A DNA stretch of 59,829 nt, taken from contig JAZKFU010000003.1 of assembly GCA_040386275.1 (NCBI GenBank), positions 112,554 through 172,382 on the forward strand. Direction: 5' to 3'. Under the pieces are notes generated by a model. The model was given only the letters and a program-made list of their open reading frames with translations. It did no database searches and was not told the DNA's origin. Of this stretch, positions 20,047 through 57,937 are shown piece by piece. A program made the position numbers and the translations under genes. Within the stretch, counting starts at the first letter, position 1. Each line of letters starts with the position of its first letter. The DNA is from Patescibacteria group bacterium (GTDB lineage: Bacteria > Patescibacteriota > Minisyncoccia > Phycocordibacterales > UBA918).

Positions 20047-20172
20047 GAGACCGAGGCGGGATTCGAAACTTACAGTTTCAGTACAGGTTGTCGCTACTTT
20101 TGAAAAGTAGCTGGCAACCTTTTCGAATCCCGCCACCAAAATAAAAACACCCGAGACGGGTGTTTTTATTTT
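20044..20172 (-). repeat. tRNA-Cys trailer element (terminator, inverted T-arm copy, module B, 24-bp direct repeat of tRNA 3' end)
   Basis: TTTGAGACCGAGGCGGGATTCGAA at 20044-20067 and 20170-20193; TTCGAATCCCGCC inverted copy at 20122-20134. Confidence 0.85.
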
Positions 20173-20173
20173 G

Positions 20174-20246
20174 AGACCGAGGCGGGATTCGAACCCGCGA
20201 ATGGCGGTTTTGCAAACCGCAGCGTTAGCCCCTTCGCCACCCGGTC
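20174..20246 (-). tRNA. tRNA-Cys(GCA)
   Basis: Reverse complement GACCGGGTGGCGAAGGGGCTAACGCTGCGGTTTGCAAAACCGCCATTCGCGGGTTCGAATCCCGCCTCGGTCT folds into a cloverleaf. Confidence 0.95.
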
Positions 20247-20338
20247 AAGACCACTACTCTATCACCATTCAATGACTTTATAAACCCTAATTGTTGTGGA
20301 ATACTTATATGAAGTACTAAACTTTCATCTTTACCATC

Positions 20339-20821
20339 ATGATAAGAAAACGTAAATGGACAAATGAAGAACTAATTTTGGCCGTTGAAAATTCAGCGAG
20401 TATTCGTGCTGTACTCATTAAAATAGGACTTGTTCCTGCAGGCGGAAACTACAGACAAGTTTCCCAAACAATTAAAGATTTAGATATCGATATTTCTCAT
20501 TTTACCGGCATGGGCTGGAGAAAGAACAGAACATTTGAATTTATACCCCAACGCGAATTGAAAGATATTCTTGTAGCAAATTCTGATTTTCAAAGTTTTA
20601 AACTTAAAAAAAGATTATTTGTTGAAGGATTAAAGACACCAAAATGCGAAATCTGTCACTGGGCAGAAATGTCAAAAGATGGTAGGATTCCTGTCGAACT
20701 GGATCATATTAATGGCAATCGATTCGATAATAGAATTGAAAATTTAAGGATTCTTTGTCCAAATTGTCACAGTCTTCAACCCACACATCGTGGTATGAAC
20801 CAGAAAAAGCCAGGGTGGTGA
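20339..20821 (+). CDS. HNH endonuclease (CxxC...HNH...CxxC) whose 3' end overlaps tRNA-Leu
   Basis: KCEICHW...ELDHINGNRFDNRIENLRILCPNCHS. Confidence 0.9.
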   Translation: MIRKRKWTNEELILAVENSASIRAVLIKIGLVPAGGNYRQVSQTIKDLDIDISHFTGMGWRKNRTFEFIPQRELKDILVANSDFQSFKLKKRLFVEGLKTPKCEICHWAEMSKDGRIPVELDHINGNRFDNRIENLRILCPNCHSLQPTHRGMNQKKPGW

Positions 20822-20892
20822 AATCGGTAGACACGCAACACTTAAAATGTTGTGATCGAAAGGTCATGCGGGTTCAAGTCCCGCCCCCGGCA
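20809..20892 (+). tRNA. tRNA-Leu(TAA)
   Basis: GCCAGGG TG GTGAAATCGGTAGACAC G CAACA CTTAAAA TGTTG long variable arm GCGGG TTCAAGT CCCGC CCCCGGC A; A4.C69 mismatch. Confidence 0.93.
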
Positions 20893-21091
20893 CAACGCTA
20901 TAAACCGCAAGCTAATGCTTGCGGTTTATAGCGTTGTGCCGGGGAGCAAGCAAACTGCTTTGCTTGCGTGCGGGACTTGAAAGACGGAATCATGTCACTT
21001 AGCGACAGATGAGTCGGGGTCGACAGCACTTAGTAGATTTGAAACGTAGTGAACAAATATACTTAGTGACTGGTGACCAAGTCCCACCTCC
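20893..21091 (+). repeat. tRNA-Leu(TAA) trailer element (28-bp-arm palindrome, 25-nt bulged hairpin, inverted T-arm copy, module A, degenerate direct copy)
   Basis: Arms 20885-20912/20917-20944; hairpin 20945-20969; GCGGGACTTGAA 20970-20981; AGACGGAATCATGT...GTGACC; CAAGTCCCACCTCC. Confidence 0.85.
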
Positions 21092-21396
21092 TACATCACT
21101 TTCCAATTTCCATTTATATATTCAGCCACTTGCTTCCCTCCCAACGGCATTCCGTCACCATCAAACCAAACTTCATCTACAGTCATTCTTCCCACTTTAT
21201 TTACCACATAATCAAATTGCCGAACATTTCCTTCTGCATCGGGCTCACTTAGTTGAACTTCAAGCTCAACTAAAACACCTTCTTCGTTATATTTTTCTTT
21301 TTTAATTACCGTATCAGCTCCATCAATTAATTTATCAATATATCCTTGAACTTTTTCGAGCGTTGGTGGAGCATTGAATGTTTCATTATTTTCCAT
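21091..21396 (-). CDS. hypothetical acidic protein
   Basis: 101-aa ORF with protein-like composition; no recognised motif. Confidence 0.6.
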   Translation of the reverse strand: MENNETFNAPPTLEKVQGYIDKLIDGADTVIKKEKYNEEGVLVELEVQLSEPDAEGNVRQFDYVVNKVGRMTVDEVWFDGDGMPLGGKQVAEYINGNWKVM

Positions 21397-21475
21397 ATTG
21401 AAATTGTAACACTAAGAATCATACCTTGTTAAATTAACAATAATCTTGTACACTTTGGCGCACAACCTAACATTT

Positions 21476-55663: not shown

Positions 55664-55671
55664 CACACATT

Positions 55672-56187
55672 ATGAAAAAACCCTCTTTCTTAGAACGTCT
55701 CACCGGTGCGCAAAACGCAAGCGAATATGATCGTATACTTGATGACGAACATGAATTTGGATCAGATGACCGCAAACAAGAAACCTACCACGACGACGAT
55801 ACTGAATCCTGGCAAGATGATGCACACGACGCGGGCACTCCTCAAGAGGGAGAGCTCCCCGTTGATATGTACCAAACCAGTGACGCTATTGTTATTCGCG
55901 CGTTAGTAGCGGGAGTAAGCCCTAACGACCTAGATATCGCAATTACTCGCGATATGGTAACTATCCGTGGTATGCGTGAAGAATACCAAGAATCTTCAGA
56001 TGATAGTTACTTCCACCGCGAATTATTCTGGGGTTCGTTCTCTCGCACGCTCCTTCTCCCTGAAGAAGTCATCATTGACGAAGCCGATGCCCAGGAGAAA
56101 CACGGCATGTTGGAAATTCGTTTGCCTAAACTTGATAAGAATCGCAGTACGCAGCTGCGAGTAAAATCACAAGTCCATAAGGCGTAA
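55672..56187 (+). CDS. Hsp20/alpha-crystallin small heat shock protein
   Basis: LPVDMYQT, TIRGMR, ELFWGSFSRTLLLP, GMLEIRLPK. Confidence 0.92.
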   Translation: MKKPSFLERLTGAQNASEYDRILDDEHEFGSDDRKQETYHDDDTESWQDDAHDAGTPQEGELPVDMYQTSDAIVIRALVAGVSPNDLDIAITRDMVTIRGMREEYQESSDDSYFHRELFWGSFSRTLLLPEEVIIDEADAQEKHGMLEIRLPKLDKNRSTQLRVKSQVHKA

Positions 56188-56263
56188 AGAATATTCAATA
56201 GAGAAAAGTGAATAGTAAAAGATAAAGGCGGTTCCAATTGGAACCGCCTTTTGATTGTGTTCA

Positions 56264-56620
56264 TCACCAAATCCTGTCGGACGGTAGAAGAGCCATATAG
56301 TTTGCAGGAACAGTGATTAACAACTGCCGCTTCTCACCCAAGAACTCTTCAGCGTACGTAATGGTGAGAATGTTATGAGAGGCTACGCACGAGCGGTAGT
56401 GATATCCTGTCTCACGAACCCAACGTCGCACACAGTCTTGTACAACAGCAAACTCTTCTAGCCGTTCGAGGGCTTCGGTGATAAGCGTCCCGAGTTCGCT
56501 GGTTTTGCCAGCATCGGGCGAGCTTTCTTTTTCTGACCCTGACGACCGAGCACCATGCACAAATTCGCATGTTTGCTCATTATTGAAAGAACGAGTACCA
56601 TCCATTGATTCCTCCTTCAT
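56264..56620 (-). CDS. hypothetical protein
   Basis: Strong SD (AAGGAGG) and downstream hairpin 56222-56252. Confidence 0.55.
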   Translation of the reverse strand: MKEESMDGTRSFNNEQTCEFVHGARSSGSEKESSPDAGKTSELGTLITEALERLEEFAVVQDCVRRWVRETGYHYRSCVASHNILTITYAEEFLGEKRQLLITVPANYMALLPSDRIW

Positions 56621-56849
56621 TGTGAATTATAACTCCTACTGATCTTTCCTAAAGCAGAAATCCGCCTCAGGAGGCGGATTTCAAGTAGACAGTAAAGTAT
56701 CACTATCTTAAAATCCCCCGCCTAGTGCGGATGAGATTGAAAGCGAGCAGAAGCTACTCCAGGTCGTGATGGTTGCTGTGTTCATCATAGTGAGATTATT
56801 GTAGCAGGATTAAAATGTATGTCTATAACCCATATGGTATTTTTGTATT

Positions 56850-57551
56850 TTAACTTGTTGTAGTTTGAGCTGCATTTAAAGATTTTGATTGAGTCATGAC
56901 ATTAGAAATATGTTCATGGGGCGAAATTTCAACGGTTTGACAAAGGTAAGATAATTTTCCAATTGCCATGAGCAGACGTTGCTGACTGATAACAGGAGTA
57001 CCATAGGACTTTATATTTTCTACCAGCTCATGAGCATATACTACATTTTTAATCCTCTCTGTTTTAAAAACACCTGAGCCGGTAAATACTACCAAGTTAA
57101 TAAAATTTTCCTCTACAAACGGCATTAATTTTTTTAAAGTTTCAACGTGCCCATAATTTTGCCACAACGGATTTCTTAAAATAAATTTCTTTCCGGTTAA
57201 ATACCTTGCTGTCCACTTTTCATTACTTTTACTTCCAAAAATCCAACCTGAACTGTCTTTGGTTTCTATCACAAAAATACCAAATCGTGACACTACTACA
57301 TGATCTATTTCGGTTGAGGTTGAATGGGATGATGGCAATATCAAATTATTATAAATAAAATATTCATTATGATTTAAACCTTCAGCCAATATCCTCACCA
57401 CCCTTCTTTCTGAGTCGTTTAAATTTTCAGCATAGCATCTATGTCCATGACCGGAATATATAGTACGTTTTGTAAAAAAAATATTTTTATTAGCACTTTT
57501 AACAAGTAGGTAGAGGGAAAGAATGATTATTAAACTAACAACAATATTCAT
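56850..57551 (-). CDS. NERD (nuclease-related) domain protein with N-terminal TM
   Basis: TEIDHVVVSRFGIFVIETKD.SGWIFG, RNPLWQNYGHV. Confidence 0.9.
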   Translation of the reverse strand: MNIVVSLIIILSLYLLVKSANKNIFFTKRTIYSGHGHRCYAENLNDSERRVVRILAEGLNHNEYFIYNNLILPSSHSTSTEIDHVVVSRFGIFVIETKDSSGWIFGSKSNEKWTARYLTGKKFILRNPLWQNYGHVETLKKLMPFVEENFINLVVFTGSGVFKTERIKNVVYAHELVENIKSYGTPVISQQRLLMAIGKLSYLCQTVEISPHEHISNVMTQSKSLNAAQTTTS

Positions 57552-57603
57552 ATATTTAATATGATAGCAGTGGATGGAGATGATCTGGTGTATTTGTGTA
57601 CAC

Positions 57604-57937
57604 GGTCGGGTGCTTGAGGGCAGGCTCGGTCACGAGTTACTAAGTATATTTGTGCATTGCGTGCAAATTCTACTAGGTGTTCTCGACCCGAGAAACAGTG
57701 CCTAAACACTGTTTCTCCCGCTGTTTCGGCTCTAGGAAGAGCCAAAACATGCCTGTGCCTTTCGTTTCTTACAGAAACTGTATACCTTGTCGCTACTTTT
57801 ACATTTCATTCCAAAGTAGCTGGCAAGGTCTTGCAGAGTGACATTGGGTCACTCTTCACCCGCACGTAACTGACATTGGTCAGTTGCTCCCCAAGCACCG
57901 GGTACAGAAATAGCCCCTTGCGGGGCTTTCTGTACGC
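57604..57937 (-). repeat. tRNA-Phe trailer element containing the 25-nt hairpin, module B and module A plus a distal direct copy of the tRNA 3' end
   Basis: Hairpin 57864-57888; module B 57761-57830; module A 57628-57760; GGTGCTTGAGGGCAGGCTC (57609-57627) versus tRNA GGTGCTTGGGGGCGGGCTC (17/19). Confidence 0.88.

Follow-up and report, generated by a model that had tools for sequence, protein, structure and literature searches.

Module B is a small structured interspersed repeat that stands behind three tRNA genes in a 59,829-nucleotide (nt) stretch of DNA from a Patescibacteria group bacterium (the window; contig JAZKFU010000003.1, positions 112,554–172,382, here C3:112554–172382 of genome G000). 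It is probably the two-hairpin core of a small gene-less insertion element, one of a modular hairpin-repeat family restricted to one Patescibacteria branch, and the element is gained or lost between closely related genomes. G000 comprises 982 kb in 11 contigs, has a G + C content of 44 per cent, and is 99.9 per cent complete. Coordinates of Module B are given in window numbering, and its sequence is read in tRNA-sense orientation.

Covariation and predicted fold

The three copies listed in the initial annotation exist (Table 1), lying 53–109 nt 3' of tRNA-Cys, tRNA-Ser(CGA), and tRNA-Phe, each on the strand of its tRNA. Exactly three occurrences of the pattern TTGCCAGCT..AGCGACAA were found in the window and none in 100 shuffles. 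A simple hairpin search of G000 found 16 copies, of which 15 were aligned (alignment A1). Across the three helices of A1, 95 per cent of cells pair and 14 of 19 pairs show double changes, a result that none of 500 shuffles reached. Among 88 distinct homologs, 95.9 per cent of stem cells pair and all 19 pairs are doubly changed (0 of 500 shuffles as good). That the outer stems differ and nevertheless pair, as had been proposed from the three window copies, is borne out: helix 1 is 100 per cent paired in the 15 aligned G000 copies and 99.4 per cent paired in the 88 homologs, with double changes at all six of its pairs.

The internal details of the fold differ from those first described. What was taken for a CCA/GA internal loop is more plausibly resolved into a C7·A43 mismatch, a C8–G42 pair, and a bulged A9. 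A sister class of repeats (..TTG-A-G...C-CAA..) has U7–A43, G8–C42, and the same bulged A; pair 8–42 covaries because the sister class has G8–C42 where Module B has C8–G42. The first hairpin (P2) is therefore predicted to form a single helix of about 17 bp in which the bulged A (replaced by U in some copies) has a fixed place and a C·A mismatch is frequent; its inner stem of 9 bp is fully Watson–Crick and covarying. A kink-turn reading of CCA/GA was rejected, as the base after CCA forms a G–C rather than a G–A pair and the stem is Watson–Crick, whereas a kink-turn has a 3-nt bulge followed by tandem sheared G·A/A·G pairs.

The TAC(T/A)G-NNN-CTGTA mini-stem of the initial annotation was drawn in the wrong register: the bases assigned to its loop make up a covarying stem together with the four that follow TGTAA. 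The second hairpin, P3, reads NNNC-U-GUA-A-GNNN, with stem variants that include AAAC/GTTT, AACC/GGTT, CTTC/GAAG, and GTCA/TGAC. In the 88 homologs, this stem has double changes at four of four pairs and 98.6 per cent pairing, and covariation at the four variable pairs is seen in roughly half of the sequences. Of 162 distinct copies, 155 have GUA as the loop; in seven, C..G replaces U..A as the pair that closes it. P3 is modeled as a 5–6-bp stem with a GUA triloop. A T-loop reading of the UGUAA pentaloop was discarded, since the covarying ends behave as a normal pair closing the triloop. The TACWG/CTGTA stem was likewise rejected, since at least 20 copies have A or G in place of the U of TAC and show no compensating change; a 3-bp UAC/GUA stem appears as an alternative conformer in the minimum-free-energy (MFE) folds of the clamped Cys and Ser units, in which the clamp and P3 compete for the TTC of the T-loop copy. 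The linker between P2 and P3 has the consensus G-N-A-C-W-G.

In the stems, G·U pairs outnumber A·C pairs in each of three alignments (6:2, 21:3, and 42:10; 69:15 in total). The fold has therefore been selected on the tRNA-sense strand, and it would be used on that single strand, either as single-stranded DNA or as a rare transcript. Because the unpaired bases (the bulged A, GNACWG, and GUA) are invariant across the order while the stems change, something specific probably reads the fold.

Searches against Rfam (release 15) returned only nine tRNAs from the window at gathering thresholds. At E ≤ 1, the 15 element-bearing loci matched only tRNAs, 5S rRNA, one group I intron elsewhere, and chance microRNA-type families; self-cleaving ribozymes (hammerhead, twister, pistol, hatchet, and hepatitis delta virus-like) gave no family-consensus match even at this level. 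A full-text literature search found no description of the module.

Copy number and distribution

A covariance model (R1) was used to search G000, its genus, and its order, and it recovered many further homologs in which the pairing is maintained. On G000, it has 45 matches at E ≤ 1, about 40 of them below 1e-3. Matches are present in all 24 other genomes of the genus, with 2–89 copies each, and in 11 of 17 genera of the order, the remaining 6 lacking them. In evenly drawn samples, 4 of 120 genomes of the class and 1 of 150 of the phylum carry the module, under stricter filters and with only about 34–43 candidates scored per genome. The fixed pattern of the 3' half was found in more than 116 stretches of public Patescibacteria assemblies; in viral contigs it had zero matches, and a phage origin was rejected. 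The module is thus abundant but confined to one branch of Patescibacteria (a Kaiserbacteria/Paceibacteria-type order), within which it is patchy.

Architecture and genomic contexts

Module B is best read as the P2 + P3 core of an 85–110-nt element without genes, composed of hairpin A, P2, the linker, and P3. In the full element, hairpin A with feet GTGAGAA..TTCGCAAG is followed by P2, G-N-A-C-W-G, and P3. The module is part of a modular hairpin-repeat system in tRNA trailers that also includes hairpin A, the GGTCGAGAACAC.. module, and E hairpins. The initial annotation had called Module B a second conserved functional cassette of the same system; its conservation, covariation, and membership in the modular system are upheld, whereas the word functional is not, for reasons given below.

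Among the 44 tabulated G000 matches, 24 lie behind tRNA genes, including two behind an intron-containing tRNA missed by ARAGORN, the program used for tRNA calls in this genome. The layout begins with the tRNA, a palindromic terminator-like hairpin, and, optionally, an antisense copy of the acceptor 3' strand with a hairpin-A arm; these are followed by the antisense of the T-loop and 3' T-stem, P2–P3, a direct copy of the tRNA from T54, and often a second terminator. The result is a forward–inverted–forward triplication of a tRNA segment; the first turn is occupied by a terminator hairpin and the second by Module B. In every case the tRNA gene remains intact. A downstream direct copy of the T-arm follows 18 of 40 tRNAs, and some part of the pattern follows about 26 of the 40.

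The flanking arms (clamps) had been described as TTCGAA copies of the T-arm at Cys and Ser. They are indeed inverted and direct copies of the T-loop and T-stem at these two loci (Cys, GGCGGGATTCGAA/TTCGAATCCCGCC; Ser, TGAGATTCGAAG/CTTCGAATCTCA); in front of the Phe copy stand hairpin A and GCAAG instead, hairpin A being the 5' part of the full element there as in copies away from tRNAs. The Cys left clamp pairs with positions 20055–20067 in the predicted fold. At Ser, one T-stem base of the direct copy differs from the tRNA and the left clamp has the matching change. The tRNA 3' end, the terminator, and the antisense arm of this locus join into a single long palindrome. At tRNA-Leu(CAA), the T-loop TTCAAGT is non-palindromic and the left arm reads ACTTGAA, so the arm is a true reverse complement rather than a copy of the 5' T-stem. 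The tRNA-Ala arm reaches into the trailer and shows perfect pairing at the place where the tRNA itself contains G3·U70. Since it is the genomic trailer and not an added CCA that the antisense arms match, the idea that they are primer-binding sites antisense to the mature tRNA 3' CCA was dropped.

Copies away from tRNAs are preceded by hairpin A and lie inside larger composite hairpin repeats in intergenic DNA. According to a crude open reading frame (ORF) caller, they occur in both orientations relative to neighboring ORFs, which argues against a fixed role in mRNA leaders or trailers. Orientation relative to the replication strand, judged by GC skew, is also unbiased (19:22); a bias of the kind shown by IS608 or attC was rejected. 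Target sites are purine-rich and T-loop-like (..RAAG|G.. and G|TTCRA..), and the repeat boundary at tRNAs is G53|T54. Arrays of two to three units occur. No site with hairpin A and GCAAGG but lacking P2–P3 was found in G000.

Several further features were observed. The tRNA-Ala trailer and terminator are wholly different between G000 (C8:213921–213994) and G304, a strain 95 per cent identical to it (locus L112, 6773–6821), and CCA is encoded in only one of the two; in both, the downstream antisense arm perfectly matches its own trailer, so that the palindrome has been kept through a wholesale swap. A stretch of about 520 nt (G000:C8:213067–213786, plus strand) abuts the direct repeat, here truncated, of the tRNA-Ala(TGC) unit; G304 lacks this stretch. 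Its ORF has, by eye, a possible PD-(D/E)XK-like motif (PDF..EVK), and Pfam gives only a sub-threshold match to DUF4221. A group I intron (Rfam, 79.9 bits; G000:C8:32081–32319, minus strand; locus L053, 582–820) splits the anticodon loop of a tRNA that is probably tRNA-Asn(GUU); an A-P2-P3 element upstream of this tRNA is flanked by a diverged copy of about 29 nt of the tRNA 5' end, and two units lie downstream. The ARAGORN calls at 20335, 35567, and 64680 of G000:C2 have unusual anticodons (Ile-TAT, Ser-ACT, and an 81-nt His-ATG), and Ile-GAT was not found by ARAGORN in G000; the odd calls could reflect miscalling, decoders with modified bases, or gaps in the assembly. A further portable hairpin, TGAGCCGTAC..GTACGGTGA, resembles a kink-turn by eye, with feet of the G·A/A·G type (G000 C5:85476, C8:180387, and C9:54338; G018C2, about 119.5 kb). 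It fills the slot in composite E repeats that Module B fills elsewhere.

Turnover between strains and species

The element has 28 matches in G304. Twelve loci are shared with G000 and ten are filled in G304 but empty in G000; 10 of the 22 assessable sites differ between the two strains. Several filled/empty pairs are exact to the base. One is an 85-nt insert (TGAGAAA.., comprising hairpin A, P2, and P3) at C2:53404. An A-P2-P3 insert in ..CCGGGGAGGAAGTTC.. has duplicated GAAG, the upstream copy being the P3 3' strand, opposite the antisense CTTC. The complete unit at tRNA-Leu(GAG) is flanked by a 22-nt repeat that runs from T54 to the tRNA 3' end; it brings its own terminator and leaves the old one untouched downstream. 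Another insert lies in the first codons of a glycosyltransferase gene, whose start is duplicated.

Turnover extends to other genomes. One host repeat is filled in G000 and empty in G018, and three G018 inserts are missing from G000. Occupation of the tRNA-Cys site varies among species: Module B is present in G000 and G007 and a sister module in G004; G013 and G015 have other modules there, G018 has Module B with foreign clamps, next to a rearrangement, and the site is empty in G002, G009, G010, and G012. At this locus, the first terminator is recognizably kept in G007 and the second is not. Module B copies nest within other repeats, and at tRNA-Gln(TTG) and tRNA-Ser(GCT) a different hairpin element splits Module B itself after GCGAC. 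A subfamily with CTGTTG..AGATTATGAGC..CAACGG, which includes a U·G pair, recurs in different genomes at loci for Ala, Ser, Gly, Thr, and Cys/Leu, and the clamps of its copies always match the local tRNA. Presence and absence among strains, nesting, patchy taxonomic distribution, and flanking terminators point to a mobile, probably selfish, module rather than to a housekeeping RNA, and the earlier designation as a functional cassette is not borne out.

Candidate mobility enzymes and evidence against mobility

Several observations weigh against an insertion element, one being that none of the tested enzyme families fits as its mover. Y1_Tnp (PF01797), RVT_1, and TnpB were profiled in 41 genomes. 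Y1_Tnp is weak or absent in 15 of these, including carriers with 5–14 copies, and is present in three element-free genomes. RVT_1 is missing from 31 of the 41 and from G000, where the assembly is nearly complete and one unit has a 61-nt perfect repeat; its absence there led us to reject a reverse transcriptase acting by target-primed reverse transcription and a retroelement (short interspersed nuclear element-like, retron, or group II intron). TnpB is missing from G000 and was found in one genome, a non-carrier. A small GIY-YIG nuclease is present at about one copy per genome, unrelated to the presence or copy number of the element, and HNH_3 (0–2 copies per genome) does not track it. Each genome has a single Xer-like tyrosine recombinase, which does not track the element, and no integron-type integrase, so an extra integrase was also rejected as the mover. 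The sole tyrosine recombinase gene of G000 (C8:127893–128405) lies by the sign change of GC skew (C8, about 127.9–130 kb), as expected for a single-Xer/dif terminus.

The inserts, moreover, have no terminal inverted repeats and no constant target duplication, which measures 0–4 nt in some and 19–61 nt in others. The filled/empty pairs are unpolarized, and precise loss through recombination between direct repeats fits them as well as gain does. The spread of the subfamily among tRNA loci could be gene conversion of resident copies, not transposition. Finally, the tRNA-Cys copy of G007 has been retained at 72 per cent flank identity with compensatory changes in P2 and P3, which is unexpected for decaying junk.

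Proposed mechanism and alternative explanations

Under the insertion-element reading, copying would proceed by microhomology between element ends and target and by strand switching at hairpins, not through a classical transposase or reverse transcriptase. The similarity between element ends and targets (GAGAAAG versus GAGGAAG or CGAAAG; the P3 3' strand versus the first target bases) suggests that joints form at microhomology. Two strand switches at hairpins may have produced the forward–inverted–forward order of tRNA segments with a palindrome at each turn, and a trans-acting factor may read the invariant bulged A, GNACWG, and GUA. Almost every unit has a terminator ahead of it, which would prevent the antisense arms from being transcribed with the tRNA and so limit harm; this placement is more in keeping with a selfish element that limits its harm than with an RNA produced jointly with the tRNA. 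We also entertain, as a doubtful proposition, a programmable structure-guided insertion system, in which the variable arms would act as guides that pair with one target strand at T-loop-like G|TTCRA or RAAG sites, the invariant core would be recognized by a putative factor that joins the element there, and the guides would be rewritten from each target by strand switching. The left clamp would then be antisense to target bases of about 4–16 and the P3 5' strand antisense to target bases 1–5.

If the module were a host-beneficial cis-acting RNA, such as a processing or insulating signal or a tRNA-like decoy positioned after tRNA genes and at gene boundaries, it should be inherited vertically and homogenized by gene conversion. 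This is unlikely, even though the strong structural covariation with invariant loops, the G·U excess on the tRNA-sense strand, the orthologous tRNA-Cys copy with compensatory changes in G000 and G007, the presence of units at more than half of tRNA genes, and the tRNA-like three-way shapes predicted for the Ser and Phe units would all suit it. Such an RNA would hardly be missing from 6 of 17 genera of its own order and from nearly all genomes of the class and phylum samples, vary from 2 to 89 copies within one genus, or differ at 10 of 22 sites between strains that are 95 per cent identical. Strong terminator-like palindromes directly before and after the units leave no room for a promoter; copies away from tRNAs face both ways relative to flanking ORFs, others are nested within repeats, and the empty alleles suggest that tRNA maturation is normal in natural strains without the unit. 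The invariant unpaired bases that would favor an RNA also count, together with the strand-specific G·U excess, against a reading without any dedicated machinery, since they imply sequence-specific recognition across the order while the stems change. In that reading, the triplications are snap-back or template-switching by-products of replication and repair (miniature tandem-inversion duplications), and the modules spread only by ectopic gene conversion. It accounts for palindromes at both turns, for the perfect palindrome of tRNA 3' end, terminator, and antisense arm even where the terminators of two strains differ completely, and for the lack of any tested enzyme family that tracks the element. 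Clean 85-nt inserts at sites without a pre-existing hairpin are hard to reconcile with it, and we judge it quite unlikely. Simple terminator snap-back as the sole origin was rejected, as in the youngest unit (that of Leu-CAA, with the 61-nt perfect repeat) the inverted arm measures just 11 nt and an anti-acceptor arm is lacking.

A hairpin with an extrahelical base, stems that conserve structure and vary in sequence, a repeat boundary at G53|T54, and arrays of two to three units also recall folded single-strand recombination sites (attC- or CTX-attP-like), at which a recombinase would stack cassettes at the T-loop G|TTC and Module B would be the strand-marking structural tip. Strain-specific nuclease-like ORFs flush with units or tRNAs (HNH_3 at 20339–20821 and the possible PD-(D/E)XK-type ORF, recognized by eye, beside the tRNA-Ala unit) could be taken as support. 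We consider this very unlikely, however: there is one Xer-like tyrosine recombinase per genome and no integron-type integrase, replication strands are used without bias (19 versus 22), most units have no cargo, and the clamps always fit the local tRNA, which simple transfer of cassettes between different tRNAs would not produce.

An insertion element of this kind would matter in several respects. Patescibacteria genomes are among the smallest and most streamlined, yet in G000 the intergenic space behind more than half of the tRNA genes is given to these units. If mobile, they are DNA that spreads without a recognized mobility enzyme while rebuilding the gene ends it strikes, and they bear on the evolution of tRNA loci and gene starts in Patescibacteria. 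There is a real chance that the mechanism is new. Were the guide reading true, prokaryotic mobile elements would gain a new class, one independent of the transposase, integrase, and reverse transcriptase families tested. The units also yield false tRNA fragments and contig breaks, which matters for assembly and annotation, and the conserved core of bulged A, linker, and triloop is a defined bait for finding a partner factor.

Features of the window

Table 1. Module B copies and associated features in the window.
Feature	Position	Strand	Basis and remarks
Module B copy 1, tRNA-Cys trailer	20066–20120	−	Sequence; R1 76.3 bits, E = 1e-17; fold z = −6.1
Copy 1, P2	Outer stem 20115–20120/20085–20090; CCA 20112–20114; inner stem 20103–20111/20093–20101; GA 20091–20092	−	
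Copy 1, linker and P3	Linker 20079–20084; P3 20066–20078	−	GTACTG; AAAC-TGTAA-GTTT
Left clamp of Cys unit, GGCGGGATTCGAA	20122–20134	−	Reverse complement of tRNA-Cys T-loop + 3' T-stem
DR2, TTCGAATCCCGCCTCGGTCTCA	20046–20067	−	Direct copy of tRNA-Cys from T54 to 3' end; identical to 20172–20193 within the tRNA
Terminator-like hairpin 1, palindromic	20138–20171	−	Sequence; between tRNA-Cys and unit
Terminator-like hairpin 2, diverged	About 20005–20045	−	After DR2
tRNA-Cys(GCA)	20173–20246	−	Source of the copied 3' segment
Module B copy 2, tRNA-Ser-CGA trailer	44357–44423	+	R1 69.9 bits; fold z = −7.4
Copy 2, P2	Outer stem 44357–44362/44399–44404; CCA 44363–44365; GA 44397–44398	+	
Copy 2, linker and P3	Linker 44405–44410; P3 44411–44423	+	P3 AAGC-TGTAG-GCTT
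Left half of Ser unit	44310–44356	+	Sequence; predicted fold is a tRNA-like three-way shape
Ser left half, antisense of acceptor 3' strand, GCGGAACGG	44310–44318	+	
Ser left half, hairpin-A-type arm	44322–44342	+	
Ser left half, T-arm antisense, TGAGATTCGAAG	44345–44356	+	
Direct copy of tRNA-Ser T-loop to 3' end, TTCGAATCTCACCGTTTCCGC	44422–44442	+	
tRNA-Ser(CGA)	44186–44273	+	
Terminator-like hairpin after tRNA-Ser	44274–44309	+	
Module B copy 3, tRNA-Phe trailer	57765–57829	−	R1 68.7 bits; fold z = −5.0; P3 present in MFE fold
Copy 3, P2	Outer stem 57824–57829/57784–57789; CCA 57821–57823; GA 57790–57791	−	
Copy 3, linker and P3	Linker 57778–57783; P3 57765–57777	−	ATACAG; TTTC-TGTAA-GAAA
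Hairpin A with conserved feet	57830–57859	−	GTGAAG-AGTGAC..GTCACT-CTGCAAG; 5' part of full A-P2-P3
Antisense of tRNA-Phe acceptor 3' strand, CCGGTGCTTGGGGAGC	57886–57902	−	Across terminator hairpin from tRNA 3' end
tRNA-Phe(GAA)	57938–58012	−	

Two further features of the window adjoin these loci. Another conserved module (GGTCGAGAACACYTAGTAGA...ATATACTTAGT..GACCGAG) is located in the Leu-TAA and Phe trailers (about 20945–21084, plus strand, and about 57640–57720, minus strand) and recurs at many tRNA loci of this genome and its relatives with 77–95 per cent identity. An HNH_3 endonuclease ORF of 160 amino acids (Pfam, 29.4 bits; 20339–20821, plus strand) occupies the space between the diverging genes for tRNA-Cys and tRNA-Leu(TAA), its end overlapping the start of the latter. 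The whole stretch of about 455 nt is missing from G304; HNH_3 matches occur at the equivalent place in G004 and G007, and a second G000 match is about 350 nt from tRNA-Thr on C1.

Comparison with known systems

The closest kinds of known elements are repetitive extragenic palindromes (REP/REPIN), repeats of the miniature inverted-repeat transposable element (MITE) type, and tRNA-integrating islands, and the element fails at least one tested defining feature of each. Like REP, BIME, and REPIN sequences, which are associated with RAYT transposases of the Y1/HUH type, it consists of short non-coding intergenic imperfect hairpins in tens of copies per genome, keeps its structure with variable stems, combines into composite units, and is often near terminators. 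Its presence, however, does not correlate with a Y1 gene. A REP is a single imperfect palindrome of 20–40 nt with a conserved GTAG-type 5' tetranucleotide, whereas the element has two or three hairpins, an invariant linker and triloop, and accompanying inverted and direct copies of the target. With MITEs such as Correia, RUP, ERIC, and the Rickettsia palindromic elements, it shares small non-autonomous insertions, presence or absence among strains, nesting, and entry into genes without destroying them. MITEs have terminal inverted repeats and a fixed target duplication; the ends of the element (GTGAGAA.. and ..CTGTAAGNNN) are not inverted repeats, its duplications range from 0–4 nt to 22, about 28, and 61 nt and can restore a gene end, and no related autonomous insertion sequence (IS) was found for it.

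As in tRNA-integrating islands and prophages, a direct repeat of the tRNA 3' part begins at the T-loop (22 nt at Cys and Leu-GAG; 61 nt at Leu-CAA), the tRNA is regenerated, and the displaced 3' copy lies downstream. Islands depend on a tyrosine integrase, whereas the inserts here are 70–200 nt long with no ORF and no integrase, add an antisense copy of the tRNA segment, and occupy more than half of the tRNA genes, of many identities. The strand-specific hairpin with an extrahelical base, here a bulged A at a fixed place, is reminiscent of integron attC sites and IS200/IS605 ends, as is the possible short pairing of element and target, with the P3 5' strand antisense to the first target bases. 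In contrast to attC, which is recombined by IntI at a GTTRRRY core, the junction is G|TTCRA and no IntI was found; in contrast to IS200/IS605, PATE, and TnpB omega-RNA systems, which rely on TnpA or TnpB and are biased toward the lagging-strand template, the element has no matching TnpA or TnpB and an orientation ratio of 19:22.

Two less closely related phenomena resemble the element in outline. Mitochondrial double-hairpin or repetitive hairpin-forming elements of fungi and sponges are small mobile hairpin modules that invade the intergenic regions of compact genomes. They differ in coming from an unrelated lineage and in having unrelated sequences, and we know of no tRNA-end triplication among them. 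Tandem inversion duplications, which arise through snap-back at quasi-palindromes and were described in Salmonella, have the same forward–inverted–forward segment order and palindromic junctions, but the duplicated segment of the element is only 11–25 nt long and its junctions are held by conserved portable hairpin modules.

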